DNA of 26,233 bases from positions 1 to 26,233 of the forward strand of contig JAZDKB010000037.1 in NCBI GenBank assembly GCA_043803405.1, read 5' to 3'. The position numbers and the translations under genes are program-made. The DNA is from Spirochaetota bacterium. Lineage in GTDB: Bacteria > Spirochaetota > UBA4802 > JAFGDQ01. How positions within the stretch are numbered: the stretch's first letter is position 1; each line of letters starts with the position of its first letter. A model generated the notes under the pieces. It had not been told where the DNA came from and did no database searches. It saw only the letters and a program-made list of their open reading frames with translations. This document shows, one piece after another, positions 1-22,742 of this stretch.

Positions 1-921
1 GCAATTATATGCCCAACCTATCCCATAGGGATAACGTGGATAAGGGCTTTCACTGCTCTCACCTGTTGCTCTGGCTGCAATATTCATTATCCTTATATCA
101 CTACAGTTATAAAAATGTATCGTAGCCCAATCACTATTAACGGCTGTTGTATGTATTATAGGCTTAACCAATGAAGGACTTGACGGATCACTGTAACCTC
201 CGATGATGATCGGCCCGGTTTTATCTGATATCGTGACTTGATTGGATATAGTAAATGTATCTCCGTTCCTGAATAGTATCCGCGTATTGGGCTGAACATG
301 TGAACCTGTAAGAGAACGATGCGGAGTAAGGAACGGATCATTCATTGTTAATCCTGTATTGGAATCGGATCCGTTGGCAGCCACATAATAAGTTGTCCCG
401 CTAAACGCAGAAACTGCAATAGCTATATTTATTGAGCCCGCATTGCCGGAAGCATCGTAAACATTCAGCTGAACCCTGTATGTGCCGGGATCCTCAAACA
501 CATGTGCGGCTACAAATCCGCTCGCCCTTTCATATTTCCCGTCAGGATCATTGTTATCCGCGTCAAAATTCCAGGAAAAAGTCGCATCCATATAGTCTGC
601 GTTATCTGCGAAGAAATTAGTTGAAGTTAATCCCGTAGTGCCTGTAGCGTCAAAAAATACAGATAAAGGAGCAAGTCCGCTTACCCTGGAAGTATTTACC
701 GATATAACAATCGAACCATCGCCGCTTGCCGGAGGTTCATTGGGAATTTCAGGTGAAGCGCTGGGTGCGGTGGGATCCATACCGGCAGTATTACCTTCGG
801 CGGACAAATCCTCAGGATTCATCGCGCAATTTGATAATAATACCGGGCAGGCAATAATAAGCACGAAAACCATCGCCATTCTTATTTTACTATCTTTCAA
901 CACTTGAAAAAGATTATTCAT
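1..921 (-). CDS. Lipoprotein with PKD domain and start of a right-handed beta-helix (pectate lyase-like) domain; partial, runs off the window's left edge
   Basis: Translated by hand from ATG at 921, which is preceded by an AAGGAG SD; open for 307 codons to base 1. MNNLFQVLKDSKIRMAMVFVLIIACPVLLSNC gives a lipobox-like Cys, followed by a Pro/Ser linker. PKD motifs: SGLAPLSVFFDA, FSWNFD, AAHVFEDPGTYRVQLNV. Then TYYVAANGSDSNTG and RILFRNGDTF, typical openers of beta-helix carbohydrate enzymes. Not in the ORF track because the stop lies outside the window. Confidence 0.85.
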   Translation of the reverse strand, partial: MNNLFQVLKDSKIRMAMVFVLIIACPVLLSNCAMNPEDLSAEGNTAGMDPTAPSASPEIPNEPPASGDGSIVISVNTSRVSGLAPLSVFFDATGTTGLTSTNFFADNADYMDATFSWNFDADNNDPDGKYERASGFVAAHVFEDPGTYRVQLNVYDASGNAGSINIAIAVSAFSGTTYYVAANGSDSNTGLTMNDPFLTPHRSLTGSHVQPNTRILFRNGDTFTISNQVTISDKTGPIIIGGYSDPSSPSLVKPIIHTTAVNSDWATIHFYNCSDIRIMNIAARATGESSESPYPRYPYGIGWAYNC

Positions 922-1589: not shown

Positions 1590-2582
1590 ATGTCTTTATT
1601 AAATAAAATAGGTGTTGTAATTATCGGCCGCAATGAAGGAAAACGTCTGGTTGAATGTTTTCATTCGATTATCGGAAAAGTGAATCGGATTGTATACGTA
1701 GATTCCGGTTCCACCGATAACAGTGTTGAGAACGCACGTCAGTTGAACATTGAAGTAGTAGAACTTGATATGACAATGCCTTTTACTGCTGCCAGGGGAA
1801 GAAACGCGGGTCTTAAAAAGCTGAAGGTATTAAAACCCGTACCTGAATTTGTTCAATTTGTAGACGGTGACTGCAAAATATCAAATGGATGGTTTGAAGC
1901 CGCTTTGAAAACAATCAAGAGTCATAAGAATATTGCAGCGGTTTACGGCAGAAGAAGAGAAGAATTCCCTGATAAAACTCCTTATAACCGGATTGTGGAT
2001 ATGGAATGGGAAAATTCCGTGGGTGAATCCGATGCATGCGGCGGTGATGCGCTGATGAAGATGAAAGCGCTGGATGAAGTGGGAGGTTATAATGCCTCCC
2101 TTATTGCAGGAGAAGAACCGGAAATGTGTCTTCGTATGCGAAGAAAAGGATGGAAGATTTTAAGCATAGGGCATGAGATGACTTTGCATGATGCGAATAT
2201 CACACGATTCGGACAATTGTGGAAACGAAGCATACGTTGCGGACATGCATATTTGGATGGATTTTTAATGTATGGAACATCGGATGACCGGTATAGAAAA
2301 AAACAGGTATTATCTGTCTTTTTCTGGTCACTCTGCATTCCTTTTTTATCAATCGGGCTGATACCAATATCCAAAGGATGGAGTTTGATTCTGATGTTTA
2401 GCTATGGATTGCTCTGGTATCGGATCAGAAAATGGCGCATCGGGATGAGTAATACTTCTATTCATGCATCACAATACGCGGCTTTCTATACCATAGCAAA
2501 ATTCGCAGAACTTCAGGGAATGATACAAAATATATTTAATAGAATTATTAAAAAGAAAACTGAAATTATAGAATATAAATAA
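1590..2582 (+). CDS. Family 2 glycosyltransferase with C-terminal membrane helices
   Basis: VVIIGRNEG start, VYVDSGSTD, ARGRNAG, DxD (FVDGD), GEEPE acidic motif, hydrophobic C-terminal segments. Confidence 0.92.
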   Translation: MSLLNKIGVVIIGRNEGKRLVECFHSIIGKVNRIVYVDSGSTDNSVENARQLNIEVVELDMTMPFTAARGRNAGLKKLKVLKPVPEFVQFVDGDCKISNGWFEAALKTIKSHKNIAAVYGRRREEFPDKTPYNRIVDMEWENSVGESDACGGDALMKMKALDEVGGYNASLIAGEEPEMCLRMRRKGWKILSIGHEMTLHDANITRFGQLWKRSIRCGHAYLDGFLMYGTSDDRYRKKQVLSVFFWSLCIPFLSIGLIPISKGWSLILMFSYGLLWYRIRKWRIGMSNTSIHASQYAAFYTIAKFAELQGMIQNIFNRIIKKKTEIIEYK

Positions 2583-2598
2583 AACAGTCCTGAAGCTA

Positions 2599-3507
2599 AT
2601 GAAAGAAATTTGCATTATAACAATAACATATAATTCAAAAAATTATATCGGTGAGGCGTTCCGAACATTGGAAATTCCATGTAAAAGTGGAATTATTGAA
2701 TGGATTGTTGTGGATAATGCCAGCCAGGATGCTACTGCTGATTATATAAAAAAAGAGTTCCCCTGGATAACGGTAATAAAAAGCGAAGAAAACCTCGGAT
2801 TCGGCCGGGGCAATAATCTTGGTGTTCGGCATACTCAGGCGCCTTTTATTTTATTCTTAAATCCTGATGCTGTTATTGACCCGGAAGCTGTTCAGTGTAT
2901 GCTCACATTCATGAAAGAAAATCTTAAAGCAGGTATTACTGCTCCGGCAATTGTAGAACCGGAAGGTACTCTTCAACCATGGTTTTTATTTCCGACTCCG
3001 TTAAGAATATTTATTCAGTCAATCGGCCTGGATCGTATTTTTAAGCAATTGTTCTATATACATCCCGGTTCACCTCCCCGAAAGGTTGACTGTGTTGGTG
3101 GCGCTGTTTTTATGGTTCGGAGAAATGTTTTTGAATCATTGAATGGATTTGATCCGAAATTTTTTTTGTATTGGGAAGAAACGGATCTTTGTTTAAGGGC
3201 TGTTCTCGGCGGTTGGGAAATATGGACCATCGGTGAAGCTGTTGCACGGCATACCAACGCAGTAAGCGCGAAGACACATAATAAACCTATGTATGCCGGT
3301 TGCATTTCGGAACACTTTTTTCAGAGCCGTTATTATTATCTTCAAAAGCACTATGGAAAAATTTTGGCCGGCATTACAGAGGTCGGAGAGTTGATTTTAT
3401 TATTTTGCTATTCTTTGTTAGGCAGGTTGATAAATCGTTCATTTAAGAGTAAATTCAGAGAGCGCTTATCCGGAACTGTATTGCAACTGCCGAAAAATGC
3501 CAGATAA
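2599..3507 (+). CDS. Family 2 glycosyltransferase (WbbL/rhamnosyltransferase-like subgroup)
   Basis: ITITYNS, VVDNASQD, ENLGFGRGNN, FLNPDA, GFDPKFFLYWEETDLC are hallmark motifs of this GT2 subgroup. Confidence 0.92.
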   Translation: MKEICIITITYNSKNYIGEAFRTLEIPCKSGIIEWIVVDNASQDATADYIKKEFPWITVIKSEENLGFGRGNNLGVRHTQAPFILFLNPDAVIDPEAVQCMLTFMKENLKAGITAPAIVEPEGTLQPWFLFPTPLRIFIQSIGLDRIFKQLFYIHPGSPPRKVDCVGGAVFMVRRNVFESLNGFDPKFFLYWEETDLCLRAVLGGWEIWTIGEAVARHTNAVSAKTHNKPMYAGCISEHFFQSRYYYLQKHYGKILAGITEVGELILLFCYSLLGRLINRSFKSKFRERLSGTVLQLPKNAR

Positions 3508-3552
3508 AACTGAATTCGAAATAATATACAATAATAAATAATTAAAAGTTAC

Positions 3553-6500
3553 ATGACAAATACATCAACATCTATTTTAAATTCATCCGAAGGAAACACC
3601 TACAGGCAAATCCAGGCTTCCAGGCAGCAGCAGCAGATATGGATGCTTAATCAATTATATCCGGATAATCCTGCATACAACTTATCAGCCGCTTTCAGAA
3701 TAAAAGGTAAATTAAATATTGAAGCATTAAATAAAAGTTATTTTGAAGCAGTGAATTCATACGAAATTTTTCATACAAGTTTCCAAATGGACAGAGGGGA
3801 ACTGAAGCAGATCGTTACAGGTATTGAAAACATCGCCATTTTAAATGAGGAGTTCGGAGCCGAGAACAATACACGCCGGGAGGAATCCATCAATCAATAT
3901 ATTCTGGAACGTGTCTCGGCACCTTTTGATCATGAAAAAGCGCCGCTCATTAAAGCCTTTTTATTACACATCACAAACGACGATCACCTGTTTTTACTTG
4001 TTTCCCATCAAATAGTGGCAGACTATGCCAGTATGAATTATCTACTGCAATACATATCAGAACAATACTCAATATTTTCCAATGGATTAACTGTAACGGA
4101 TCCGTTAAAACCGAAGCAGTATTCTGATTATGTTAACTATCAGAATCAGCAAATCGATGAGGGTTCTTATGCTGAGAAACTCAACTATTGGAAAAATACC
4201 GTATTAAATCCAAATGGCTTTCTTGACATCCCTGTTTCATGTACCAGGCCATCGATTCAGACTTTCGAAGGAAAAAAGCATGAGTATAATTTTCCTGAAA
4301 ATCTCTCAGATAGTATTAATAAGTTAGCGCGTGAAATGGGTATTTCAGTTGAAGCGGTTTTTTTAGGATTATTTCAAATTCTTCTTTTTCGCTATACGGG
4401 CAATGGAGGTTTCTCGATCGGGTTTCCTTTCTTAAATAGAAATACTGATAAATTTAATGATCTGCTGGGTCCACTTGAAAATATTCTGCCTTTTACCAGT
4501 AACATTTCAGATTCACTGGCATTAAGAAACGCATTGCTCCGGACTCAAAAAGCACTGCAAGAAGCATCCAATCATCAGGATGTGACCTTTGATTCGATTG
4601 TGGAGATCATTAAGCCATTGCATGATCCTGGTTATAATCCCATATATCAGGTTGGATTCCGATTTTTTAAATCTCCACGCCTGGTGCTGAACAATCTTGA
4701 AATAATTCAACATGATTGTTTTAATAAGACATCCTTTATTGATTTGTTTTTTAATATCATTGATGATAAAGGAAAGTATAAATTACGGATTGTCTATAAT
4801 CCCGGGCTGTTTGATGCATCGGCAGTTGCCGCTTTCGTAGAGCAATATGAGGTTTTACTTGCTAATGCGTTAGAATCGAAAGAAACTCCGATATCGCTGC
4901 TCAATTTGCTCCCGGAAGCCGATAAACATAAACAGTTGATTGATTGGAACAATACAAAGCGGCCGTTTCCAAAGCACCGGAAAATACATGAATTTTTTGA
5001 ATACCAGGCTTCATTGAATCCGGACAGTATTGCGGTAGAATTTGAAAAGAATAAACTGACATACAGGGAATTGGACCAACGCGCGAATCAATTGGCGCAT
5101 TTTTTACAGAAATATAAAGTGGCCCCGAATGTTTTAGTAGGAGTATGCCTGGAGCGGTCATGTGAAATGATGATTGCTTTGCTGGGTGTCTTAAAAGCCG
5201 GCGGCGGATACATTCCGATGGATCCTGAATATCCAAAAGACCGGATCGCTTATATTGCAGAAAATTCAAATGCGCCGGTATTGATTACACAACAATCCCT
5301 GTTGTCTTTTTTACCTGAAACCGATGCATCAACTGTTTGCATAGACAGAGACTGGCAGGAGATTGAAACTTATCCGGTTGATAAATTCCCGGACAATGCG
5401 GAACCTGATAATGTAGCGTATGTTATTTATACTTCCGGTTCAACAGGCAGGCCGAAAGGCGTTCAGATCCCACATGGAGCTGTTTCGAACCTGATGGCCA
5501 GTATGGCAAAAGAACCGGGAATGAATAAGAATGATGTTCTCGTTTGCGTTACAACATATTCCTTTGATTTATCAGTTCCGGATTTATATTTACCGCTTTA
5601 TACCGGAGCCAGGACAGTATTTGTTAAGCGTGAAATTGCCGCAGATGGTCCTCAGTTAGCTAAAATTTTAAAAGAGACTAAAGCAACCTTCATGCAGGCC
5701 ACTCCTTCTACATGGACGCTGTTACTGGATTCAGGATGGGAGGGTTCAAAAGAGCTGACGGCTTTGTGCGGCGGAGAAGCCTGGCCGGCAAATCTTGCCG
5801 GGATCCTGGTTCCCCGCGTCAAAGCATTATGGAATATGTACGGTCCGACGGAAACAACGGTATGGTCGACATGTTATCATATATCAAATCCGGATTCACC
5901 TGTCCTGATCGGAAAGCCAATTGACAACACATCGGTTTATGTTCTTGATAAAAATCTGCAGTTGGTACCTATTGGAGTTCCGGGAGAGCTCTATATCGGA
6001 GGCCATGGAGTCTCACTGGGCTATCTGGGCCGTCCCGAACTTAATAAAAGCAGCTTTATTGAAAATCCGTTCAATATTGACGGACACCCAAGAATATATA
6101 AAACCGGAGATTCTGTCCGCTACAGACCGGACGGTAATCTTGAATATCTGAACCGGCTGGATAATCAGGTTAAAATTCGCGGCTTGCGAATTGAACTTGG
6201 TGAAATAGAATCTGTCCTTCTTAAATTTCCGAATATTAAACAAGGTGTGGTAATTGTCAGAGAGGATAATCCGGATGACAAGCGTCTGGTCGGCTACTTT
6301 GTCGCCAGTGATGGAAACAAAATCAGCGAGAAAGAGCTGCGTGAATTTTTAAAAAGTACGCTGGCCTCATATATGGTGCCCCATCATATTGTACAGCTTG
6401 ATGAACTGCCGAGAACGCCGAACGGGAAGGTGGATCGAAAAGCATTGCCGGTTCCTCAACAGATCATTGCTGATGAGAAACAACCATATAAAGATCCGAC

Positions 6501-9234
6501 TCATTTAAAAAAGCTCCCAATGGATGATTGGTTTTATAAGCCTGTCTGGAAACCAATCCAATTGGAGTCAAATGCTGAATTACCGCAAGCCGCAACTTGT
6601 CTGCTTTTTCTGGATGAGGACGGCATAGGCGAGGAGCTAGCCGGGTACTTGCGGAAAAAAGAATATGACGTCATTACCGTGCGTTTGTCTGATTCCTATT
6701 ACAAGTTCAATGAAAGTGAATATTGCATTAACCCCGAACAGGGTCTTTCCGGCTATGTATCTTTAGCGGCTGATCTGGCGGCAAACGGACGGTTTCCAAA
6801 CAAAATTGCTCATTTATGGATGTTGACCGGACAGGAAACATTTAGGCCCGGGTCAAGTTTTTTTCACCGAAATCTTGAATGCGGCTTTTACAGCATTTTG
6901 TATTTAATACAGGCGCTTAACAAACAGGGATTAACAAATAGAAGTCAACTCCTGGTCGCCTTGAATGGCTCGCAAAAGGTGTATTCCGAGTATATACCAT
7001 ACCCTGAGAAGGTATGTGTTCTGGGGCCATGTATGGTTATGACCAGGGAATTTCCTCAAATGAAAACAAGTGTTGTTGATTTTGATTATCCTGCAAAAAA
7101 ACCGCAAATTTTACTGCATCCGAGAACTTTTATCAGTAAACGAATGCGCAAACGCTATGCAAAATTACTGGAAAAAGAACTGCTGGTTCCATCGGAAAAT
7201 GATATTATAGCATATCGGAAAGGGCGACGATTCGTAAAACAATATGAACAAGTCGCTTTACCATCTTCTTCGTCTAATTTACTTCGGAAAGGCGGAGTTT
7301 ACCTGATTGCCGGAGGATTGGGAAAAAAAGGTAAACAGATAGCTCATTATCTCGCTAAAAATATTCAGGCACGACTCATCATTGTAGATAGGAAACAACT
7401 GCCTGATAAAAAAGACTGGAATAATTTTCTATCCGGGACTGATAAAGAGCAGTCAATCGCCAACGATATTAAGACACTTCGCGAACTTGAAACTCATGGC
7501 CAGGAGGTAATATTTTATTCTGCTGATATTGCAGATGCAGGACAAATGGCAATATTGCTGGAGGATGTGAAAAGACGGTTTGGCGCTGTCAATGGAGTTA
7601 TTCATGCGGCTTCTATGGACACCTCAGATCCGATTTATATGCAGGATAACAACAAAGTGGAACGATGCTTTGCAGCCAGGGTAAAGGGGACACTGGCCTT
7701 AGATCAGCTTTTCCAGAAATTGGAATTAGATATGTTCATATTATTTTCCTCCAGTGATATTGTGACAGCAGGAACCGGGAAAGCTGGTGTTGTTGCAGCC
7801 GGTGCATTTATGGATGCATATACAGAAAATTGTGCTGCAAATAATAAAAGGAAAACAATATGCCTGGTTTGGGGATATTGGGATCATTCAGAAGTTCAAA
7901 CGGGAACAGGCTTAGGTGATGCTACAGATCCATCCGGAACCGTGTTGACGGATAATGAGCGGCTCCTGAATTATATATCAATGCAGGGACTAAAACCTGA
8001 AGAATGTTTTCAGGTTTTTGAAAAATCTTTGGCAGGTCAATCAGGAGTATTGGTTGTCTCACCGATTAATCTATTTGATTATGCATCTGAAATCGAATTA
8101 AGATGTTCAGGAACTTACGGAGATGAACTGGCTGAACCGAGGGACGATATTGAACGGACCCTGGTTGACTACTGGAAGGAGATTATCGGCATCAGACACC
8201 TTGGTGTCCGTCAGAATTTTTTTGACGTCGGCGGGCATTCGTTAACTGCAGTGCGTCTATTCGCAAAAATCCAGCAGAAGTATAATGTTCAGTGGCCGCT
8301 TGCAGTATTATTTGAAGCGCCCACTATTGAGGCATGTGCCAGGCTGATCAGGAATGAAATCCAGGGTAAGAGACAGAATAAGGATGGAGCTGACAGCCAG
8401 GAGTTTCGTTTTTTAGTAAAGATGCATGAGTCTACTGGAAACGATACCGTTCCGATATACATTGCCGCCGGCGGTTTTGGTAATGTACTTAACCTCAGAC
8501 ATCTTGCGCAGCTTATAGGTAACCAACGGCCTGTTTACGGAATACAGGCAAAAGGATTGCTTGGGGATGACCTCCCTCATGAAACGTTTGAATCAACAGC
8601 ATGTGATTACCTCAAAGAAATACGTAAGGTTCAACCGAATGGCCCGTATATACTAGCCGGATTTTGCTCAGGCGGGGAAATTGCTTATGAGATGGCACAG
8701 CAGTTAATTAATGATGGTGAAGATGTTTCACATGTTATAATGCTGGATGCGATTGCCTCGGACTGGCGGGAGAAACTGACCAGAAAGGATAAAATTGCCT
8801 TTCATATTATGAATTTCAAACGGGCCGGGATTAAATATCCATTTATATGGTTTGTTAACCGCGTTAAATGGGAATTGAAAAAACTCCGGGAAAAATTCGG
8901 CTTAAACAAAGAGGAAACAGGTCCGGCTGTATTTCGCGGAAGGGCTATTTTTGATGCCACCCTGAGAGCAGAAGACAGGTATAAGCCAAAACCGTATGCC
9001 GGCAAAGTGACCTTGTTCAGGCCAAAGCTTGATCAATTCGTCTTTTTGGACGGGGGAAGAGTAATAAATAAAAAACGCGAATTTGTGAGGCCGGACAATG
9101 GGTGGTCGCCTCATATTAAACAATTGGATATTCAGGAAATAGCTGTGGAACCGGGAGATCATGATGGTTTTGTACTTGAACCTGCAGTCCGTGATTTATA
9201 TTTTAAATTAAAGACAGTTTTAGAAAGTAAATAA
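3553..9234 (+). CDS. Single-module NRPS/PKS-derived protein: degenerate C - A - inactive KR - T(PCP) - TE (Cys nucleophile)
   Basis: C domain with HQIVADY at 4006-4026 in place of HHxxxDG. A domain motifs YTSGSTGRPKG (5428-5460), FDLS, NMYGPTE, YKTGD, GELYIGG, NGKVDRKAL. KR fold with GGLGKKG (7312-7332). T domain FFDVGGHSL (Ser at 8239). TE with GFCSG (Cys at 8665), MLD and GDHDG (His at 9160). Confidence 0.93.
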   Translation: MTNTSTSILNSSEGNTYRQIQASRQQQQIWMLNQLYPDNPAYNLSAAFRIKGKLNIEALNKSYFEAVNSYEIFHTSFQMDRGELKQIVTGIENIAILNEEFGAENNTRREESINQYILERVSAPFDHEKAPLIKAFLLHITNDDHLFLLVSHQIVADYASMNYLLQYISEQYSIFSNGLTVTDPLKPKQYSDYVNYQNQQIDEGSYAEKLNYWKNTVLNPNGFLDIPVSCTRPSIQTFEGKKHEYNFPENLSDSINKLAREMGISVEAVFLGLFQILLFRYTGNGGFSIGFPFLNRNTDKFNDLLGPLENILPFTSNISDSLALRNALLRTQKALQEASNHQDVTFDSIVEIIKPLHDPGYNPIYQVGFRFFKSPRLVLNNLEIIQHDCFNKTSFIDLFFNIIDDKGKYKLRIVYNPGLFDASAVAAFVEQYEVLLANALESKETPISLLNLLPEADKHKQLIDWNNTKRPFPKHRKIHEFFEYQASLNPDSIAVEFEKNKLTYRELDQRANQLAHFLQKYKVAPNVLVGVCLERSCEMMIALLGVLKAGGGYIPMDPEYPKDRIAYIAENSNAPVLITQQSLLSFLPETDASTVCIDRDWQEIETYPVDKFPDNAEPDNVAYVIYTSGSTGRPKGVQIPHGAVSNLMASMAKEPGMNKNDVLVCVTTYSFDLSVPDLYLPLYTGARTVFVKREIAADGPQLAKILKETKATFMQATPSTWTLLLDSGWEGSKELTALCGGEAWPANLAGILVPRVKALWNMYGPTETTVWSTCYHISNPDSPVLIGKPIDNTSVYVLDKNLQLVPIGVPGELYIGGHGVSLGYLGRPELNKSSFIENPFNIDGHPRIYKTGDSVRYRPDGNLEYLNRLDNQVKIRGLRIELGEIESVLLKFPNIKQGVVIVREDNPDDKRLVGYFVASDGNKISEKELREFLKSTLASYMVPHHIVQLDELPRTPNGKVDRKALPVPQQIIADEKQPYKDPTHLKKLPMDDWFYKPVWKPIQLESNAELPQAATCLLFLDEDGIGEELAGYLRKKEYDVITVRLSDSYYKFNESEYCINPEQGLSGYVSLAADLAANGRFPNKIAHLWMLTGQETFRPGSSFFHRNLECGFYSILYLIQALNKQGLTNRSQLLVALNGSQKVYSEYIPYPEKVCVLGPCMVMTREFPQMKTSVVDFDYPAKKPQILLHPRTFISKRMRKRYAKLLEKELLVPSENDIIAYRKGRRFVKQYEQVALPSSSSNLLRKGGVYLIAGGLGKKGKQIAHYLAKNIQARLIIVDRKQLPDKKDWNNFLSGTDKEQSIANDIKTLRELETHGQEVIFYSADIADAGQMAILLEDVKRRFGAVNGVIHAASMDTSDPIYMQDNNKVERCFAARVKGTLALDQLFQKLELDMFILFSSSDIVTAGTGKAGVVAAGAFMDAYTENCAANNKRKTICLVWGYWDHSEVQTGTGLGDATDPSGTVLTDNERLLNYISMQGLKPEECFQVFEKSLAGQSGVLVVSPINLFDYASEIELRCSGTYGDELAEPRDDIERTLVDYWKEIIGIRHLGVRQNFFDVGGHSLTAVRLFAKIQQKYNVQWPLAVLFEAPTIEACARLIRNEIQGKRQNKDGADSQEFRFLVKMHESTGNDTVPIYIAAGGFGNVLNLRHLAQLIGNQRPVYGIQAKGLLGDDLPHETFESTACDYLKEIRKVQPNGPYILAGFCSGGEIAYEMAQQLINDGEDVSHVIMLDAIASDWREKLTRKDKIAFHIMNFKRAGIKYPFIWFVNRVKWELKKLREKFGLNKEETGPAVFRGRAIFDATLRAEDRYKPKPYAGKVTLFRPKLDQFVFLDGGRVINKKREFVRPDNGWSPHIKQLDIQEIAVEPGDHDGFVLEPAVRDLYFKLKTVLESK

Positions 9235-9249
9235 ATGGAGCTATTTCTA

Positions 9250-9852
9250 ATGAATTTTATAAAAAAAATAATACGTTGGATTGCTTTAAAGTATGGCAAA
9301 TTAACTAATCTGTATATAAAATTATGTAGACCACGCGGTGAGGAATATGCACAATATTTGAAAAAGCATGGCCGTTTCAGGTCAATCGGAGATTATTGTT
9401 CGATCAATACTTTTACGAATATACCAGACCCTGAATTTGTGCGAATAGGGAATAATGTTCGGTTAAGCGGTTGTTCGCTTTTTGGACATGATGCCTCTAT
9501 TGCAGTTTTAAACCGCGCATATAATGTTAAACTGGACAAGGTGGGTAAGATTGATATTAAAGACAATGTATTTATTGGACATGGAGCAATTGTGCAGCCT
9601 GGCGTTACTATCGGTCCAAATGCTATTGTCGCAGCTGGCAGTGTTGTCACTTCTGATGTAAAAGAAGGAACCATAGTAGGCGGGATACCTGCCCGTACTA
9701 TTGGAAAAGTGGAAAAACTTGTTGCAAAACTAAAAAAAGAAACCGAACAATTACCATGGAATGACCTGATTCAGAAGCGTGTTGGGGCGTATGACCCAGC
9801 TTTAGAACCAGAATTGACAAAAAGGCGAATCAAATATTTTTTTGGTGATTGA
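9250..9852 (+). CDS. Hexapeptide-repeat (left-handed beta-helix) acyltransferase, sugar O-acetyltransferase-like
   Basis: IGDYCSI, IGNNVRL, IKDNVFIGHGAIVQPGVTIGPNAIVAAGSVVTSDV, VGGIPA. Start at 9250 is favoured because GGAG (9237-9240) precedes it; the alternative start 9235 abuts the NRPS stop. Confidence 0.88.
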   Translation: MNFIKKIIRWIALKYGKLTNLYIKLCRPRGEEYAQYLKKHGRFRSIGDYCSINTFTNIPDPEFVRIGNNVRLSGCSLFGHDASIAVLNRAYNVKLDKVGKIDIKDNVFIGHGAIVQPGVTIGPNAIVAAGSVVTSDVKEGTIVGGIPARTIGKVEKLVAKLKKETEQLPWNDLIQKRVGAYDPALEPELTKRRIKYFFGD

Positions 9853-10102
9853 TGATAGATCATCAACTGGCTGGTACAGTTGAATCATATAGGGAGACTC
9901 CTGAATCTTTATTAATATTATATACAAAAAAAATCCAACAGCTCATTATACTTATAACAATGCAGCATTTTTTCCAATGCTAATTAAATCATTTTCAGGT
10001 ATAAGTTCATCCTGGTTGCTGCCTATAAAAATTACTTGATATCAACATTATAGAAACAATAGTATCAATTTTAGGATTATTGTTTATTATATTATTGGGT
10101 AA

Positions 10103-11179
10103 ATGAAAATTGAAATGTTTAAATCAATAAAACAATTAAATTTCCCTAAAACCCCGTTAAAGCGTAGAATATTGTATAATTTCCACTCCTTCCTTCACTT
10201 ATCAAGAATAGATATAATTTTAGCACATACAATAGATGCTGACGGTGCAGTAATATTAGGGTATCATAGTGTTGCTTCAAATGAAAATAAAAGATGGATT
10301 GATCCAAGTAATCATATTCCAAGGGACATTTTTGAAAAGCACATGAAATTCCTCGCGAATAATCGTACTGTTATATCTATGGATACCCTTATTAATTCTA
10401 TAAAAGAAAAAAAGCCTTTACCCGGAGGAACAACAGTTGTTAGTTTTGATGATGGCTATCTGGATAATTTAACAAACGCGACTCCCATATTGAAGAAATA
10501 TAATCTTCCGGCAACAATATATCTCGCAACTGGATATATCGAAAGAGAAGAAAACCAGTGGATTGATCAATTATTCACATGTTTTAATGAACGAACAAAA
10601 GATAGACTATTGATTTCTGAAGTATCTGAGAAGCAAATAGAAATGAACGATTCTGCTTCCACATGGACTGCATATTCTCAAATTGCTAAATATCTTTTAG
10701 TAAGTACATATAAACAGAGAACATATATACTTGCATCTATAAAAAAACAACTTGTTCCAAATTATAATCCGCCCAAGCTCACTATGAACTGGGATGATGT
10801 ACGGACACTTGTTAATAACAACAGGAATATTACTCTCGGATCACATACTTATAATCACACAGATATAAGCAGGATAGTTAATAACAAAATAATATCTGAA
10901 ATTAAAATCTCTACAGAAGATATTAAAAGAGAGACAGGTCAAAGCCCTGTTCATTTTTCCTGTCCTTATTCCCGGACAGCAGAAAACTTACCGGCAATTC
11001 TCAATAAACTGGGATACTTATCATCTGTATCAGATAGTGCTGATTTATTAATTAATTCAAAAAGTTTTCCTTATGCTCTTGGGCGTGTTACGCCTCCGGT
11101 TAATTTATCCAGGCTGGCACACTATACAAGCGGTAATTATCCGGGAATATCAAAACTAATAATGAGGGGACGTTATTAA
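10103..11179 (+). CDS. Polysaccharide deacetylase (CE4/NodB family, IcaB/PgaB-like layout)
   Basis: ILGYHSV, SFDDGYLDN, GSHTYNH (H-x-x-x-H) and FSCPY motifs. Confidence 0.9.
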   Translation: MKIEMFKSIKQLNFPKTPLKRRILYNFHSFLHLSRIDIILAHTIDADGAVILGYHSVASNENKRWIDPSNHIPRDIFEKHMKFLANNRTVISMDTLINSIKEKKPLPGGTTVVSFDDGYLDNLTNATPILKKYNLPATIYLATGYIEREENQWIDQLFTCFNERTKDRLLISEVSEKQIEMNDSASTWTAYSQIAKYLLVSTYKQRTYILASIKKQLVPNYNPPKLTMNWDDVRTLVNNNRNITLGSHTYNHTDISRIVNNKIISEIKISTEDIKRETGQSPVHFSCPYSRTAENLPAILNKLGYLSSVSDSADLLINSKSFPYALGRVTPPVNLSRLAHYTSGNYPGISKLIMRGRY

Positions 11180-11248
11180 AGGAAAATAAAATTATTATAA
11201 ATAATTATTACGTCCGAAAATAATCATATTCTAATAAATAAAAAAATA

Positions 11249-12364
11249 ATGTTAAGAAAAACCTTTGCTGAAATAAATCTGAAAGCAATTAAAAATAATA
11301 TCAAGGCACTAAAAGAAAAAGCCGGCAATGATAAGAAAGTGCTTCTGCCTGTTAAGGCGGATGCCTATGGTCACGGTATTGTTGACGTATCGAGATATGT
11401 GGAAAAAAATAATATTATTGATATGCTCGGTGTAGCCACTCTTGACGAAGGTGTTAATCTGAGAAATGCAGGCATTAAGGTGCCTATTCTTGTGCTTGGA
11501 CTAATTATACCGGACGAAGAATCGACAGGGGTTATACTTGATTACAATCTTACACAGACTATCGCTGACAGAAGACTTGCAGAAAAAATTTCTGAAGCAG
11601 CAATGCTGAAAGGCAAGAAAGCAAGGCTTCATTTAAAAGTTGATACCGGCATGGGAAGGATTGGATGCAAACCTGAGGAAGCGGTAAGAATAGTAAAAGA
11701 AATATCCTCCCTGGAATTTATAGAACTGGAAGGGATATGCTCGCACTTTCCAGTGGCAGATGAAAAAAACACAGAATTCACCAATAAGCAGATTAATATA
11801 TTTTCGAAAATACTAATTCAAATTCAAAAGGAAGGCTTTGATATTCCTCTTAAGCATATATCAAACAGCGCAGGGATTGTAAGCTTTCCCGATGCCGCGT
11901 TAAACATGATAAGGCCCGGAATAATGTCATACGGATACCTACCTGCTTCAGGAATGAAACTGTATGACATTAAACTTGAACCGGCAATGACATTAAAGAG
12001 CTGTATTGTTTTCTCCAAAAGAGTAGCCAAAGGAGTTCCTCTTTGTTATGGATTGGCCTATACTGCACCGGAAGATTCAAATATCGCCACTGTAGCGATA
12101 GGATATGGAGACGGATACAGCAGGTTTCTGTCAAACAAAGCAAAGGTAATCATTAAGAGCAAAATATACCCCGTTGCAGGCAGAGTAACAATGGACCAGA
12201 TCCTGATTAACCTTGGAGATGATGAATATCCATTAGGCGAAGAGGTAATTCTTTTCGGCAGGGATAATATTACTGTTGATACTGTAGCCGAATGGATCGG
12301 CACTATCTCTTATGAAGTAACATGCGGTATATCCAAGAGAGTTCCAAGAGTATATATAGAATAA
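11249..12364 (+). CDS. alr: Alanine racemase
   Basis: VKADAYGHG (PLP lysine), HLKVDTGMGRIG, IRPGI, CYG, IGYGDG, GRVTMDQ, TISYEV. Confidence 0.97.
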   Translation: MLRKTFAEINLKAIKNNIKALKEKAGNDKKVLLPVKADAYGHGIVDVSRYVEKNNIIDMLGVATLDEGVNLRNAGIKVPILVLGLIIPDEESTGVILDYNLTQTIADRRLAEKISEAAMLKGKKARLHLKVDTGMGRIGCKPEEAVRIVKEISSLEFIELEGICSHFPVADEKNTEFTNKQINIFSKILIQIQKEGFDIPLKHISNSAGIVSFPDAALNMIRPGIMSYGYLPASGMKLYDIKLEPAMTLKSCIVFSKRVAKGVPLCYGLAYTAPEDSNIATVAIGYGDGYSRFLSNKAKVIIKSKIYPVAGRVTMDQILINLGDDEYPLGEEVILFGRDNITVDTVAEWIGTISYEVTCGISKRVPRVYIE

Positions 12365-16844: not shown

Positions 16845-17438
16845 TCAGTTAATCTCTTCTGCTTTCCCATTACCGGATTTATTATATATCTCCTTTACCT
16901 TCTTCACTGCCCTGCAGTATGCCGTTTTGGCAGTCACTGCCTTTATGTGCAGAAATTCGCTTATATTCTCATAACTAAAGCCTTCAGCCCTGTACCGGAG
17001 AATACTTCTGTCTCTTTCGCTGACGGATGAAAGGGCATTTTGCAACCTGCTGTCAACCGGAGTAAGCTCCGTTTCTTCCGGATCATTTATATCTTTGTCC
17101 TGTTTCGCGGGATAAATATCAAGATAGCTTTCATCGAGAAACAGCAGCTCAGGTTTATGTGATTGTTTTCTGTAATAATCCCTTAGAAAATTCTTCGTTA
17201 CGGTTAAAACCCATGTAGCGAGAGTTCCCCTGTCGGGATCGAACCTGCCTATTGTTATAATAAGATGAATGAGGGTTTCGTTAAGCAGTTCGTCGGTATC
17301 TTCGCTCTCGGTGCAATAGTTCATGCATTCTTTGTAAATAAGACATGAGAACCTATTGCTGAATTCTGTATAGGCCTGCCTGCTGCCGTCAACTATTCCC
17401 TGTGCGGTTATTCTGTCTTTTTCTTTTGAATTTAACAT
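16845..17438 (-). CDS. ECF-type RNA polymerase sigma-70 factor
   Basis: Region 2: DTDELLNETL, FDPDRGTLATWVLTVTKNFLRDYYRK. Region 4: LSSVSERDRSIL, EGFSYENISEFL. Start at 17438 is favoured over 17459 because of the GAGG SD at 17445-17448. Confidence 0.88.
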   Translation of the reverse strand: MLNSKEKDRITAQGIVDGSRQAYTEFSNRFSCLIYKECMNYCTESEDTDELLNETLIHLIITIGRFDPDRGTLATWVLTVTKNFLRDYYRKQSHKPELLFLDESYLDIYPAKQDKDINDPEETELTPVDSRLQNALSSVSERDRSILRYRAEGFSYENISEFLHIKAVTAKTAYCRAVKKVKEIYNKSGNGKAEEIN

Positions 17439-17622
17439 AAAAAGCCTCACTTTGATCATATATATTATAAAAAATAATTTTCAGATAAACACTTTTAAAA
17501 TGTTTAAAACGAATCCATTGTCCTATTGTAACAGCCTCTTCAACAATTACCCTCCTGCCCTCGCAGAGCTGCCTCCCCCCGGTGTCTGTTACTTTACATG
17601 CATCAACCTGCTTCAAAGGCTG

Positions 17623-18911: not shown

Positions 18912-19808
18912 TTAATGTTGTTTTTTTGCATAGGCAACCCGTGGATTCCCGGCAGGATCTTTTTTAAATTCAGGTTTACTAAACACTGAGTTTCTCGAAA
19001 ATAATAATTCAACCTGTCTTTCCTGACCAAGTCCAAATTCAAAAAATAAATAGCCTCCATGCTTGAGATATAACCCGGATTCCTTAATGAGGCGTTGATG
19101 GATCGAAAGGCCAAATGGCCCGCCATCAAACGCTTCACGGGGTTCATGCGTTAGCAAATGAGAATTTTTATCAGACAAAGCTTTCGTTGATATATATGGC
19201 GGGTTCGAAAATACTGCATCAACAGCACCCTCAAGAGATAATCCTGACAGTGGAGAAAACATATCGCCGGTAAAAACCCTGGCTCTATCATGAAGACTGT
19301 GCATTTTAAGATTCTCCCGAGTCAATGCTGCACAGGGTTCAGTAATATCAACCGCATAAATGAATGTATAGGGAAGATGATACAATACAGAGCAGGTCAA
19401 ATTACCACTGCCGCATCCGATTTCAATTATTACTTGAGTACTACTTTGCTGGTTCTGTTTTCCCAATATCTCCACAAGCGATTCGCCAAGTATTTCAGTT
19501 TCAGATCTGGCCACAAGAACTTCAGGTCTATACACAAGCTCCATGTCCATGAAATGCATACGCCTGGTTATATGGGCAAGTGGGGTCCCGTCAGTTCGCT
19601 GGCGTACTAACATATCAAGTTTTACTTTTTCTTCATCGTTCAGATCCGGCAGGGGTGTAAGGATTGCCTGTTCCGCTGAAAATGGTGTTCCCGCGGCGCA
19701 ATGCCATAGGGCATATATCGTAGATTCAGGCGTTTCCCGCGGGAGATCCGGAGAGAATGTGCATTCATTTAATACTATTTGCAGATATTTATCAAATAAT
19801 GTATTCAT
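18912..19808 (-). CDS. HemK/PrmC-like SAM-dependent methyltransferase (divergent paralog)
   Basis: GTPLAHI, RSETEIL (PRPETE-like), EIGCGSG (SAM motif I), SNPPY, HEPREAFDGG, FEFG; atypical N-terminus PDLPRETPESTIYALW. Confidence 0.88.
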   Translation of the reverse strand: MNTLFDKYLQIVLNECTFSPDLPRETPESTIYALWHCAAGTPFSAEQAILTPLPDLNDEEKVKLDMLVRQRTDGTPLAHITRRMHFMDMELVYRPEVLVARSETEILGESLVEILGKQNQQSSTQVIIEIGCGSGNLTCSVLYHLPYTFIYAVDITEPCAALTRENLKMHSLHDRARVFTGDMFSPLSGLSLEGAVDAVFSNPPYISTKALSDKNSHLLTHEPREAFDGGPFGLSIHQRLIKESGLYLKHGGYLFFEFGLGQERQVELLFSRNSVFSKPEFKKDPAGNPRVAYAKKQH

Positions 19809-19830
19809 AACATTATTATTCCTTAATTCA

Positions 19831-21396
19831 TTATTTCAGATTTTTTTTTGTGATTTTTCCGGTCTCTGTCTTGGGAAGAGAGTCCATAATCTCTATGACC
19901 TTGGGCACCATAAAGTTTTCGAGTTTTTGCATGCAATATTTTTGAATAAGCTTGGGAGTCAATGACGAATCATCAATCGATACGAAGGCCTTGATCGCCT
20001 GCCCCATGAGTTCATCTGGTATACCGATAACCGCAGCTTCCCGCACGCCTTTAATGCCAAGCAGGGCATTTTCAACTTCAACTGGACTGACTTTTTCACC
20101 TCGCGATTTAATTATATCATCGCTGCGGCCTTTAAAATACAGGAATCCTTCTTCATCCATCGAAAACCAGTCCTGAGCGCACAATACGCGTTCACCCGGT
20201 AAATTTCCGGGCCTGAGCATTTTTGCACTCAGATCAGGGTCTTTCCAGTACCCAAGCATGACATGAGCGCCCCGGACATGGAGAATGCCGGTTTCACCTG
20301 GAGGCACGGGGTTTCCCTCAGGAGAAAGAAGAAATACTTCAGTACCGGGAATTGCTTTCCCTACTGAGGATGGTTTGGCATCATTAAGTTCAGGCTCAAG
20401 ATAGCATACCCTTTTGCATTCAGTGAGACCATACATCCGATAGATGAGGGCGTTTGGGAATATCTGATGCAAATCAGTATTATAATCAACGGGTAAAGCT
20501 GCGGCAGTATTTGTAACCCGGGTTACATCGGGAAAACATAATGGCTTTCGGCGATGAGTAGATACCAGTGTAGTATAAATGGTTGGAACCCCAGGGAAAA
20601 CAGATACTTTTTGTTCACGCATTCGGTTAAAAATTTGTGCGGGATAAGTAAATGATCGTTCAAGAATGATTGTGGCGCCAATTAGTATGGACATCAATAC
20701 TTGATAAAGTCCATAATCAAATGCCAACGGTAAAACATTTAAAATATGGTGATCGGAGGATAGCCTGAGATACTGCGCTATGCTCTGGGCTGCGAATATC
20801 ATTGACTGGTTAGTTTGCATAACACCTTTCGGATCCCCAGTACTTCCAGATGTGTATATAAGAGCTGCAAGGTCAATTGATATAGATGGGGAAGGCAATG
20901 TCCAGGGTTGAGCTGTTGAGCACACCTTTGGTAAAGACTCTACCGGATAATTGGGAGTATATGGTATTGACTTAAAAAATTTATCTTCATCACCAGTAAA
21001 AAGCAAGGCTGTAAGCTTGGTGAATTGATGCAATATCGGGCCAAAAAATGGAGTAAGATGACTATCGGTTATCAAAATTTTTGCGTCGCTATTGTCCATA
21101 ACGTAGGTAAGTTTATCAGCCTTGGTTTGCGGGTTGATAATAAAAAATACACATCCAATCATAAGTATACCAAAGATAGCCATAACTGTATATGCTGTGT
21201 TGTCCATATACAGCGCGATCCGATCTCCACGTTGTGCCCCGAATTCCTTAAGAACTGTAGCGATTCTACGGGATGTATCAGCAAGTTCGGAATATGTATG
21301 CCCGGTTCCTTCTGCAACAAGAGCTACCTTGGAAGGATTAATTTCTGCTGAGTGGAATAAAGTTTCATGAAGAAGTCGAATCGGAGTGTTTGACAT
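19831..21396 (-). CDS. Stand-alone AMP-dependent ligase (ANL superfamily, acyl/aminoacyl-carrier ligase)
   Basis: IYTSGSTGDPKG, LPLAFDYG, MYGLTE, GRSDDIIKSRGEKVSPVEVE, LPKTETGKI. Confidence 0.92.
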   Translation of the reverse strand: MSNTPIRLLHETLFHSAEINPSKVALVAEGTGHTYSELADTSRRIATVLKEFGAQRGDRIALYMDNTAYTVMAIFGILMIGCVFFIINPQTKADKLTYVMDNSDAKILITDSHLTPFFGPILHQFTKLTALLFTGDEDKFFKSIPYTPNYPVESLPKVCSTAQPWTLPSPSISIDLAALIYTSGSTGDPKGVMQTNQSMIFAAQSIAQYLRLSSDHHILNVLPLAFDYGLYQVLMSILIGATIILERSFTYPAQIFNRMREQKVSVFPGVPTIYTTLVSTHRRKPLCFPDVTRVTNTAAALPVDYNTDLHQIFPNALIYRMYGLTECKRVCYLEPELNDAKPSSVGKAIPGTEVFLLSPEGNPVPPGETGILHVRGAHVMLGYWKDPDLSAKMLRPGNLPGERVLCAQDWFSMDEEGFLYFKGRSDDIIKSRGEKVSPVEVENALLGIKGVREAAVIGIPDELMGQAIKAFVSIDDSSLTPKLIQKYCMQKLENFMVPKVIEIMDSLPKTETGKITKKNLK

Positions 21397-21441
21397 AGAA
21401 AATCCTTACTGATTATTACTTATTTTTTTTATAAAATCAGT

Positions 21442-22440
21442 TTATTTTAATGAGATATCTAGCATTTTTGCCCCGAAATTGACCATGGAGATGTCTTCTT
21501 CTTGGATTGTCTTGGCAATACCATCCTCGCGCTTCATACTGCCGCTCCGGACAATACCTGCCATCTCCCATGCATATGGATGGAAATTGAATCTTTTTCG
21601 ATGCAAATAATTTGCAAGTGCATTTAAAACGCAATTACTGGAATTCGGGTCCGTATCTAAAGGCTCTTCCCATCCGAGCGATTTAATAAATTTCAGAATA
21701 GCTTTTTCATCATATTCAAAAAATGCAAGAGGATGAATATTAATAGGCCATCTTTTCTTATCTATATTATTCAGATCATTATCTGATAAAAAATAAGAAC
21801 TCAATTCTCTGCAATTTTCCAGTATAGGGTCTCTTGTGGTTTTATGACTTATATTTTGAAGTCTGGGGCTTGTTTGCATAATCGCAGATGTAATCGGAGC
21901 TTGCCCTGGCGTCCAACCATATGCAACAAGCGGAATATTCTTTTCGATAGCTGTTTTTAAAACTAAAGATTTAACATGGCTGATGCATGTTGTACACAGT
22001 GAGCTTGCCCGATCCAATGTTTTAGCGTTATATAAATCTTTTGTTGCTGCAATCTTAAAAATTTTCTTCATTTTTTGGAAGGACGGTCTTATTATTAAAC
22101 TTGTTGCTTTGCAAAGATCCGTCATCCGGATAATATTTTCCATTGCCTTTTCGGAAATAAATCCATTATCAAAAGTTAAGGCTAATATATTAAGATTATA
22201 TTTATCTGCAAGTTTATACATAGTATAAGTGGAATCTTTACCGCCACTAAAAGCCATAATGACATCATAATCGTATTTGCCTTTTACGCTTTCTAAAAGT
22301 TCTTCAAATTTTTTTGTATATTCACGCTTTTTCTGATCATCCGGCAGCTGTATATGCAGGCAGTAATTACATTTTCCGTCTTTATCGAATTCTATTCCCG
22401 GGAATGTATCCGGCAGCACACAATTGGAGCAAAATTTCAT
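21442..22440 (-). CDS. Cys-rich PP-loop (N-type) ATP pyrophosphatase, N-acetyl-sugar amidotransferase (WbuX/WbpG)-like
   Basis: CSNCVLPDTFPGIEFDKDGKCNYC N-terminus, YDVIMAFSGGKDSTY PP-loop, TFDNGF, CTTC, SSNC. ATG at 22440 has an AAGGAG SD (the track's start at 22446 is a TTG). Confidence 0.85.
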   Translation of the reverse strand: MKFCSNCVLPDTFPGIEFDKDGKCNYCLHIQLPDDQKKREYTKKFEELLESVKGKYDYDVIMAFSGGKDSTYTMYKLADKYNLNILALTFDNGFISEKAMENIIRMTDLCKATSLIIRPSFQKMKKIFKIAATKDLYNAKTLDRASSLCTTCISHVKSLVLKTAIEKNIPLVAYGWTPGQAPITSAIMQTSPRLQNISHKTTRDPILENCRELSSYFLSDNDLNNIDKKRWPINIHPLAFFEYDEKAILKFIKSLGWEEPLDTDPNSSNCVLNALANYLHRKRFNFHPYAWEMAGIVRSGSMKREDGIAKTIQEEDISMVNFGAKMLDISLK

Positions 22441-22490
22441 AAACAACTCCTTTATATCCTCAACATATAAAATCTGAGATTAATTATCTT

Positions 22491-22742
22491 TTAATTAACA
22501 TCTTTTATTTTTAAATATTTTACAATATTATCTATACTATCTAAATTTTCCGGAATTAATTCTTCATCCTCAATTTTTATTGAATATTTCTCTTCAAGGA
22601 ACATAACAAGCTCTAAAACACCGGTTGAATCTATTATACCGCTATCCAGCAAAGACTGATTTGTCAGTAAATTTATTTCACTGCGGCCTATAATAAAATT
22701 TTCTTTAATAAAATTAATTATTGTTTCTTGAACGCTTTGCAT
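22491..22742 (-). CDS. Stand-alone acyl/aminoacyl carrier protein
   Basis: 83 aa, acidic; LLDSGIIDSTGVLELVMFLEEKY (phosphopantetheine Ser in DS) and PENLDSI, the pattern of DltC-like free carriers. Confidence 0.92.
   Translation of the reverse strand: MQSVQETIINFIKENFIIGRSEINLLTNQSLLDSGIIDSTGVLELVMFLEEKYSIKIEDEELIPENLDSIDNIVKYLKIKDVN

Follow-up and report, generated by a model that had tools for sequence, protein, structure and literature searches.

A chimeric peptide synthetase–polyketide synthase protein in a spirochaete polysaccharide island is a candidate glycan aminoacylation enzyme

Amino acids attached to surface polymers alter their charge and adhesion and the way in which phages and hosts recognise them. 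AlmEFG carries out the glycylation of lipid A in Vibrio cholerae and, like Dlt, consists of several separate proteins. In the Dlt system, adenylation is followed by formation of a carrier thioester, from which a small amino acid is passed onto a surface polymer (PMC13721041). The thioesterase (TE) of Pks13 releases its product onto polyols, with trehalose preferred (PMC9210659). Collins et al. described a four-gene cluster of a nonribosomal peptide synthetase (NRPS), a polyketide synthase (PKS), a glycosyltransferase (GT), and a phosphopantetheinyl transferase (PPTase) in 28 of 57 Roseobacter genomes, the product of which was uncharacterised (PMC4337385, 2015). Here we follow up an original prediction about a 26,233-nucleotide stretch of DNA from a Spirochaetota bacterium (contig JAZDKB010000037.1; the whole stretch is called the window), namely that an 1893-aa NRPS-like protein encoded there activates a small amino acid and transfers it to a glycan. 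The best reading of our results, to which we give roughly an even chance, is that the cysteine TE of this protein would aminoacylate a glycan, with Gly (or Ala) going to a cytoplasmic repeat unit or sugar precursor.

The source genome is labelled G000 (contigs C4, C7, C28, C37, etc.; the window is C37) and a related genome G091. Pfam places Condensation at residues 20–461 of the protein, AMP-binding at 482–825 and 884–959, Beta-ketacyl_N at 1027–1141, KR at 1248–1444, PP-binding at 1536–1599, and Thioesterase at 1641–1742. The domains are thus condensation (C), adenylation (A), ketoreductase (KR), carrier, and TE, with a single carrier domain and none between A and KR. The A core motifs YTSGSTGRPKG, FDLS, GGEA, YGPTE, TGD, and NGK are all present. 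The C domain reads HQIVADY, and the canonical termination-module motif HHxxxDG is absent; among aligned C domains of related NRPSs, HHxxxDG is found in 244 of 312 and HH in at least 298 of 312. As far as motifs can tell, the A, carrier (Ser-1563), and TE (Cys-1705, Asp-1732, His-1870) domains retain intact catalytic sites, and C and KR lack catalytic residues. These results bear out the original account of the six-gene layout, with its 45 bp gap and abutting acyltransferase (Table 1), and of which domains are intact and which degenerate. The description of the protein as NRPS-derived holds for the C-A half; the other three domains (KR, carrier, and TE) are of PKS origin.

Judged by its sequence, the protein is a chimera of a glycine-type NRPS C-A pair and a PKS tail of KR, acyl carrier protein (ACP), and TE, without the ketosynthase (KS), acyltransferase (AT), or dehydratase (DH) of the PKS or the thiolation (T) domain of the NRPS. 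Pfam finds no KS, AT, or DH in the 1893 residues, and the A domain is uninterrupted, without a luciferase-like (LLM) insert, and has no T of its own. The fusion joint is at about residues 965–990, where the end of the A domain (...DRKALP) runs into the parental post-AT linker (...DWFY..VW). The best 120 matches listed in a search with residues 985–1893 comprise 5 of the fused architecture (the query and four at 67–72% identity) and 115 type I PKSs, of which most are about 2150 aa long and some are truncated at contig ends. A partial open reading frame (ORF) in locus L011 (76%) brings the fused forms to six; the G091 fused gene agrees with P0002 in both length and start, and was counted once. 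Six of the PKS matches were domain-scanned, and four are KS-AT-KR-DH-ACP-TE, while two have a second KR before the TE. These two, P0008 and P0083, one of which lacks its start, carry that KR between ACP and TE; the parent family shuffles its tail. A search at 50% clustering gave one full-length relative (P0003) among 150 listed. The donor of the C-A half was not identified, as the search was swamped by multi-module NRPSs, and no PKS of this family was found elsewhere in the source genome.

The KR, ACP, and TE have median identities of 37–46% to 119 parent PKSs, and 90 of the 123 columns that are at least 90% conserved in these parents are kept in all fused forms. The distance from KR to ACP is 287–295 aa in the fused forms vs about 600–700 in 113 of the 119 parents; thus, the DH is absent from the fused protein. 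In the parental PKS, the DH sits between the KR core and the last KR helix, and this helix, downstream of the DH, is retained in the fused forms. In an ACP-TE tree built from 121 rows (7 others, short or with no ACP, were dropped), the fused forms group on a long branch with support of 1.0, while the placements nested in or sister to the parents have supports of only 0.41 and 0.68. Since the tree does not separate these two, both loss of the DH and divergence before its insertion are possible.

The KR keeps the glycine-rich motif GGLG, while its catalytic Tyr, conserved in at least 90% of the 119 parents, is V/A/S/S/T/V across the 6 fused forms; of the 59 KR columns with parental conservation of 90% or more, 29, including that of this Tyr, differ in at least one fused protein. 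The motif GFCSGG in the TE of 6/6 fused forms contrasts with G[FY]SGGG in 119/119 parents, so the nucleophile is Cys in the former and Ser in the latter. In alignments, Cys-1705 takes the position that the catalytic Ser has in 7CRN and the Cys has in 4ZXH. The TE is predicted to be cytoplasmic. Lacking a functional C, KS, and KR, the protein is therefore limited to activating one amino acid, holding it, and passing it on through its TE.

The parent PKSs were examined in their genomic setting. There were 149 matching plasmid records, and the 8 PKS matches opened are 7 family members and one distant Nostoc PKS. In 7/7 family loci, the PKS is beside an NRPS of the MupA/Atu3671 family and glycosyltransferases, with an annotated flippase in 4 and a PPTase in 5. 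The Nostoc PKS (29.8%, no DH gap) is in an ordinary small-molecule cluster without GTs. The parent loci contain homologues of the GT2a (39–50%), GT2b (about 30%), GT4, and flippase genes of the spirochaete island described below, and a GT2 gene is directly between PKS and NRPS in the Ruegeria, Parasedimentitalea, and Paracoccus loci. The partner NRPSs of L027–L030 have a luciferase-like domain inserted within the A domain. From their gene content, the opened loci very likely belong to the same family as the cluster of Collins et al.

What amino acid is activated? The A-domain code is DLPQLGMVWK, with Asp-235 retained (FDLS, Asp-672), and the best solved matches to the pocket region are 4ZXH (AB3403), 8WWW, and 5U89. 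The commonest code among 332 related A domains is DILQLGMVWK (24); Pro together with Gln, as in the fused protein, occurs in 4, and this Pro-239 is shared with 8WWW, for which the open-licence literature yielded no substrate. The parent NRPSs have the same D-I-L-Q…G-M-I-W pattern. We take the DILQLG[LM][IV]WK codes, AB3403, and module 1 of DhbF to be glycine-specific. Hence, the predicted substrate is Gly, or alternatively Ala. A depsipeptide (keto-acid) module was considered and rejected, as Asp-235 is kept and the KR Tyr is lost in 6/6.

The gene is maintained under purifying selection. Mean identities among 5 fused proteins are 87% for ACP, 82% for the A core, 79% for the A sub-domain, 74% for TE, 69% for the KR structural subdomain, 57% for the KR catalytic subdomain, and 54% for C. 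The carrier is thus the most conserved domain and C the least conserved catalytic one. The ratios of nonsynonymous to synonymous substitution (dN/dS) between G000 and G091 are 0.056 for A, 0.078 for KR structural, 0.089 for TE, 0.18 for C, and 0.19 for KR catalytic, all below 0.2, although these values are rough because dS is near saturation, and that for ACP is not computable. The fused form is rare and is known solely from uncultured assemblies. Of 122 genomes in the class, 2 have a full-length TE match and 5 others have weak partial ones; in the phylum, full-length matches number 2 of 401. The gene was not found in two genomes of the same genus that are 90–93% complete. This patchy presence within the genus fits a mobile island. 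Scans for further loci gave one true relative among 3 loci in genomes and none among 3 in metagenomes. Among 301 genomes of the phylum of G122, a match was found in G122 alone, on a single 3.7-kb contig, and its host label may be a matter of binning.

The orthologue in G091 (96% complete) is 72% identical and lies within a complete Wzx/Wza/exosortase polysaccharide island; the stretch covered was C12:160000-246000, with 24 + 8 proteins domain-scanned. Before the orthologue, the gene order is hexapeptide acyltransferase, alr, GT4, GT2, GT2. After it come a GT4, two PKD genes, Wzx (PF13440), an ATP-grasp gene, a GT2, and a GT-C, then a wecB-like gene (by motif), an LPG-synthase-type membrane protein, a GNAT, and a second A-T-TE. 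These are followed by an acyltransferase-3, a second hexapeptide gene, a GT2, and WecG/TagA, by putative polymerase and chain-length genes (labelled by homology only, with no family match), and by a priming GT (PF02397) and a nucleotide-sugar dehydrogenase. On the upstream side are Wza (PF02563), exosortase/EpsI, and rml-like genes. Most of the G091 island genes have homologues of 60–89% identity on C28 and C7 of the source genome; the chain-length-like gene and one outer-membrane gene are lower (33–40%), and the ATP-grasp and upstream GT4 genes have no match there. The first 46 nt of the window are also both ends of C28, and C7 starts with the tail of a PKD paralogue. Very probably, the island of the source genome is one locus split over C37, C28, and C7 at a repeated gene. 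Several near-identical copies of the PKD-domain surface protein (window 1–921, C28, and C15:196192-198120) break the assembly, and the copies are in tandem in G091.

Homologues of the ACP, amidotransferase, AMP-ligase, and methyltransferase genes at 18912–22742 of the window flank the G091 island, where the ACP pair adjoins an asparagine-synthase-type amidotransferase; these genes are probably a further tailoring cassette. The second A-T-TE (G000:C7:7987-11680, minus strand; L026:1827-5499) has 852 aa, the code DILQLGMVWK, and a Ser-TE with the motif GLSFGG. It overlaps a GNAT gene inside the island, is full-length only in G000 and G091 of the 122 genomes, and may be a separate glycylation unit. 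An island-linked amino-sugar aminotransferase was considered, since there is one at the edge of the G091 island, and was rejected; its closest source homologue (62%) is on C36 among unrelated genes, and sharing is unsupported. No member of the MBOAT (DltB-type) or PF03279 lipid-A-acyltransferase families was found in G091, which suggests that a transferase of the DltB or AlmG type is not required. The source genome has one MBOAT, on the unlinked contig C29, and PF03279 on C9 and C18 only.

We suggest the following sequence of events. An Sfp-type PPTase encoded elsewhere would prime Ser-1563, and the A domain would adenylate glycine, or possibly alanine, and load the PKS-derived carrier directly. 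The C and KR domains may act as scaffolds that keep the domain spacing. The TE would then take the aminoacyl group onto Cys-1705 as a thioester and pass it to a hydroxyl or free amine of a lipid-linked repeat unit or nucleotide sugar before the Wzx flip, yielding an extracellular polysaccharide that bears aminoacyl groups. A possible role of the hexapeptide acyltransferase is acetylation of a sugar or of the glycyl amine; in the latter case, it would take the place of the formyltransferase-like N-terminus of the parent NRPS. This reading of glycan aminoacylation by the Cys-TE is supported by the island context, the PKS ancestry among GT loci, selection, the glycine-type code, the Ser to Cys switch, and the precedent of Pks13. 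Replacement of the Ser nucleophile of a TE by Cys tends to shift the reaction from hydrolysis towards transfer. Judged from the setting, the likely acceptor is a sugar at the cytoplasmic face of the Wzx pathway.

Several of the original proposals can now be judged against this mechanism. The link to glycans is strengthened by the full Wzx-type island in G091 and by the glycan genes around the parent PKS in 7/7 loci opened, and activation of a small amino acid agrees with the glycine-type code and with A, carrier, and TE being the most constrained catalytic parts. Priming in trans also stands, as there is no PPTase in the window and the genome carries two, on C4 and C36. At G000:C4:115064-126220, a gene for a 3132-aa iterative-type PKS is followed by that for an Sfp-type PPTase, and this PPTase is the likeliest priming enzyme for the fused protein. 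An amine exposed by the neighbouring CE4 deacetylase had been suggested as acceptor; as a general acceptor it is not supported, since G091 has the same enzyme and island and no CE4 orthologue was found there (best match, 23% over 82 residues). Thus, the CE4 gene is accessory to the island. The protein may or may not work as a single-polypeptide system, because the island also holds the second A-T-TE with its GNAT, the hexapeptide acyltransferase, and the ACP/AMP-ligase cassette.

A number of observations weigh against aminoacyl transfer to a glycan by the TE. The single-sequence structure prediction was unusable (predicted local distance difference test, pLDDT, 40), and the alignment-based TE model (pLDDT 92) is an ordinary type I TE, with Z scores of 24–28 to the TEs of NocB, AB3403, fatty acid synthase, oocydin, and Pks13 alike. 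Its best fold matches include hydrolysing, cyclising, and transferring TEs, and the modelled structure gives neither support for nor exclusion of transfer. A Cys nucleophile is also found in the TE of AB3403 (4ZXH), which is not known to be a glycan enzyme. With Pro at position 239, the code is not the usual one for Gly; given this residue and the alr paralogue in the island, the substrate may be (D-)Ala. The second glycine-type A-T-TE beside a GNAT muddies the division of labour. Only two of the loci read are near-complete; both come from a single taxonomic order and are probably one horizontally shared island. Finally, all 7 parent loci are from Alphaproteobacteria and not independent, and the parent cluster product is itself uncharacterised (PMC4337385).

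The alternative that survives best, which we consider unlikely, is that the fused protein only activates and carries the amino acid, and that the hexapeptide acyltransferase or the island GNAT transfers it, with the Cys-TE a relay or a proofreading hydrolase. Hexapeptide enzymes such as LpxA and LpxD use acyl-ACP donors. The hexapeptide gene is beside the fused gene in 3/3 loci read (G000, G091, L011) and at E ≤ 1e-40 is found in the same 2 of 122 genomes, and Dlt has separate transfer proteins (PMC13721041). However, at this threshold the hexapeptide family has 1354 matches, far more than the 5 clusters of the fused family, so most members function without a fused protein, and the 4 parent loci searched for it yielded no hexapeptide homologue. 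A TE that is strongly conserved and has undergone a family-specific switch of nucleophile also argues against this alternative.

We regard it as improbable that the product is a small diffusible aminoacyl-sugar or glyco-conjugate, exported by the Wzx route, rather than a decorated bulk polysaccharide. Carenaemin of Collimonas depends on a Wzy-type locus as well as an NRPS/PKS cluster, and a peptide core joined to a flipped repeat unit has been proposed for it (PMC8313283); the GT2 gene directly between PKS and NRPS in three of the parent genera would suit such a product. On the other hand, the island has Wza, a putative chain-length protein, and an exosortase, a lone Gly or Ala has no hydroxyl for a GT, and no dedicated small-molecule exporter was seen in G091 C12:160000-246000.

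Could the C domain be active although its His is replaced by Gln? The TE would then transfer an N-acyl-aminoacyl or dipeptidyl unit, with the island ACP/AMP ligase or the second A-T-TE as donor. Some C domains tolerate loss of the catalytic His. Here, His-152, Gln-153, and Asp-157 are invariant in 5/5 fused proteins, the domain is under purifying selection, and the ACP, AMP-ligase, amidotransferase, and methyltransferase homologues flank the island in both genomes. However, many columns are invariant anyway among just 5 sequences, HH is kept in nearly all of the related C domains counted above, and this is the least conserved catalytic domain; we think an active C domain quite improbable. The amino acid would end up on a glycan whether the TE or a partner transfers it, and in most forms of the active-C alternative too.

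It is very improbable that the acceptor is a surface protein or lipid of the exosortase system rather than a glycan: exosortase/EpsI is in the island of both genomes, and an exosortase gene is also beside the parent cluster of Ruegeria conchae, but exosortases are routine in exopolysaccharide (EPS) loci (PMC1569441), a simple pattern scan for the PEP-CTERM tail gave 0 ORFs in the source genome, and the TE is cytoplasmic by prediction. That the protein is a decaying, functionless NRPS-PKS relic, as its two dead domains, several missing domains, and great rarity might suggest, is largely refuted and equally improbable, since the open frame and architecture are kept at only 67–72% identity, dN/dS is low in each computable domain, and A, carrier, and TE have kept their active-site residues.

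The features of the window are collected in Table 1. Assignment of the hexapeptide protein as a sugar acyltransferase comes from its family and context and is thus putative. P0396, a 74%-identical hexapeptide acyltransferase, and the fused homologue P0004 are both listed with the same longest contig of 34455 bases, which hints at a possible fourth co-occurrence of the two genes. The CE4 gene has a lower GC content (0.33, and 0.24 at third codon positions); because of this and the 250-bp gap, its co-transcription with the fused gene is only putative. Promoter and terminator scans of the window were near chance level. Among sequencing runs, no RNA set containing the sequence was listed, and two DNA runs aligned to it in nothing more than brief, dispersed segments. 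Two full alr copies are present in G000 and G091, and one in G001, G002, and G004, all three of which are without the fused gene; the copy at 11249–12364 is island-borne. Farther along are a 738-aa lipoprotein-like protein with four Fn3 repeats (12478–14694, minus strand) and a 543-aa protein that looks secreted and matches no Pfam or NCBIfam family (15182–16813, plus strand), both possibly glycan-active, and a 208-aa ORF without family matches (18134–18760, plus strand), which adjoins an ECF sigma factor gene (16845–17459, minus strand). Outside these genomes, the metagenome locus L016:5480-17283 has several NRPS genes directly after chain-length-like and nucleotide-sugar dehydrogenase-like genes in an EPS-type locus, and metagenome-assembled genomes of Anaerolineales (L012, L013:8393-11137) have a stand-alone A-T-TE-like protein of about 910 aa near membrane glycosyltransferase-like and nucleotide-sugar epimerase-like genes.

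Table 1. Genes of the window and domains of the 1893-aa protein, with nucleotide positions in the window.
Feature	Position	Strand	Remarks
PKD-domain gene, N-terminal part	1..921	-	Duplicated gene, truncated by contig end
GT2 glycosyltransferase a	1590..2582	+	77% to G091 orthologue; 39–50% to GTs of parent PKS loci
GT2 glycosyltransferase b	2599..3507	+	81% to G091; ~30% to GT2 between PKS and NRPS in Ruegeria/Paracoccus loci
Chimeric C-A-KR-ACP-TE protein, 1893 aa	3553..9234	+	From Pfam and alignments; 45 bp after GT2b
Condensation domain	3610..4935	+	HQxxxD in place of HHxxxDG
Adenylation domain	4996..6447	+	Code DLPQLGMVWK, Asp235 kept
PKS post-AT linker and KR structural subdomain	6505..7257	+	
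KR catalytic subdomain	7294..7887	+	Without catalytic Tyr
PKS-derived carrier domain	8158..8349	+	Ser1563 = nt 8239-8241, motif GGHS(1563)L
Type I thioesterase	8410..9222	+	Cys1705-Asp1732-His1870
Hexapeptide-repeat acyltransferase	9235..9852	+	Abuts fused gene; homologues suggest start at 9250
CE4 polysaccharide deacetylase	10103..11179	+	SFDDG and HTYNH motifs present; 250 bp gap before gene
alr, second alanine racemase copy	11249..12364	+	73% to G091 island copy; 58% to the other alr of the source genome, on C15
ACP, N-acetyl-sugar amidotransferase-like (WbuX-like), exosortase-system-like AMP ligase, HemK-like methyltransferase	18912..22742	-	

Open-licence articles (supplements and subscription papers lay outside the scope) gave no account of this architecture or of the parent product, and PMC4062626, PMC6361997, PMC4359443, and PMC517821 contributed nothing on function. 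The supposition of an NRPS in the C. difficile type B flagellin locus proved wrong; the genes described there are FemAB-like, ATP-grasp, cyclodeaminase, and aminotransferase genes (PMC5207246). If the preferred reading of TE-mediated glycan aminoacylation is true, a single chain for activation, carriage, and transfer would be a compact glycan-tailoring tool and a new job for an NRPS/PKS thioesterase. The fused form also hints at the role of a widespread and unexplained marine gene cluster. We tentatively propose, as an idea that may well prove wrong, that it is a natural minimal version of a family whose TEs all acylate Wzx-pathway polysaccharides: exopolysaccharide would receive an N-acyl-glycine-derived ketide from the Roseobacter-type cluster, and the spirochaete form would be a one-polypeptide glycan aminoacylase, in which the TE switched from Ser to Cys with the change of cargo. 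Such family-wide acylation would explain the lack of a reported small-molecule product. What the present work chiefly offers is a prediction open to experiment, that decoration of exopolysaccharide is the role of this orphan NRPS/PKS family.

How does the protein compare with the known systems? With the Roseobacter-type cluster, it shares a homologous KR-ACP-TE tail with the family TE motifs, and it resembles that cluster in its adjoining GT2 genes, glycan-locus setting, and glycine-type A code. However, the cluster has KS, AT, and DH, none of which is in the fused protein, and its NRPS is separate, with an LLM-interrupted A domain, its own T, and a formyltransferase-like N-terminus, whereas the fused form is one polypeptide with none of these. 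The cluster carries its own PPTase, while the PPTases of G000 and G091 are far from the island. The fused form further differs in its dead C domain, loss of the KR Tyr, and Ser to Cys change in the TE. With these missing domains and a dead C, no chain extension is possible. Rather than a full member of the Roseobacter-type cluster, the fused form is a derived variant that does not extend chains.

Depsipeptide synthetases such as those of cereulide and valinomycin have A-KR-T modules with no T between A and KR, the same A-KR-carrier order as here. Their keto-acid A domains lack Asp-235 and their KR is intact, whereas the fused protein keeps Asp-235 and has lost the KR Tyr; with a KR from the Roseobacter-type PKS family, the resemblance is convergent. 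AB3403 (Acinetobacter, C-A-T-TE, 4ZXH) is the best solved match to the A pocket and, by Foldseek, to the TE, and it too has a Cys-TE, but it has no KR insert and its TE is of a separate lineage (22–25% identity). The terminal ACP-TE of Pks13 passes an acyl group to a sugar, as the fused protein is proposed to do. Pks13 TE chains aligned furthest in the sequence search (to residue 269–270 of 284) and ranked high by fold, although no better than other type I TEs; identity is about 20%, and Pks13 has a Ser nucleophile, long-chain acyl cargo, and a free disaccharide acceptor.

The proposed likeness to AlmEFG is glycine on a carrier followed by cytoplasmic transfer to a surface glycoconjugate. The code of the fused A domain is of the glycine type, although with the unusual Pro-239, and glycine activation as in AlmEFG is a candidate trait only. 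However, AlmEFG has an AlmG-type PF03279 gene, which is absent near the fused locus and was not found in G091, and it acts in a lipid A context, whereas the fused protein has a TE and an EPS context. Dlt has the same logic of adenylation, carrier, and transfer, and an alr paralogue is nearby in the island. Its proteins are separate, and the MBOAT protein DltB, with DltD, is linked to the ligase; the fused locus has no linked MBOAT (DltD itself was not searched for), and the fused A domain scores below the DltA cut-offs (270 vs 559.85 bits for TIGR01734 and 282.5 vs 476 for NF003417). In the fused protein, one chain with a TE instead of MBOAT/DltD would serve a Wzx-pathway glycan in a diderm. 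By analogy, it would work like Dlt and Alm, yet it is a member of neither.

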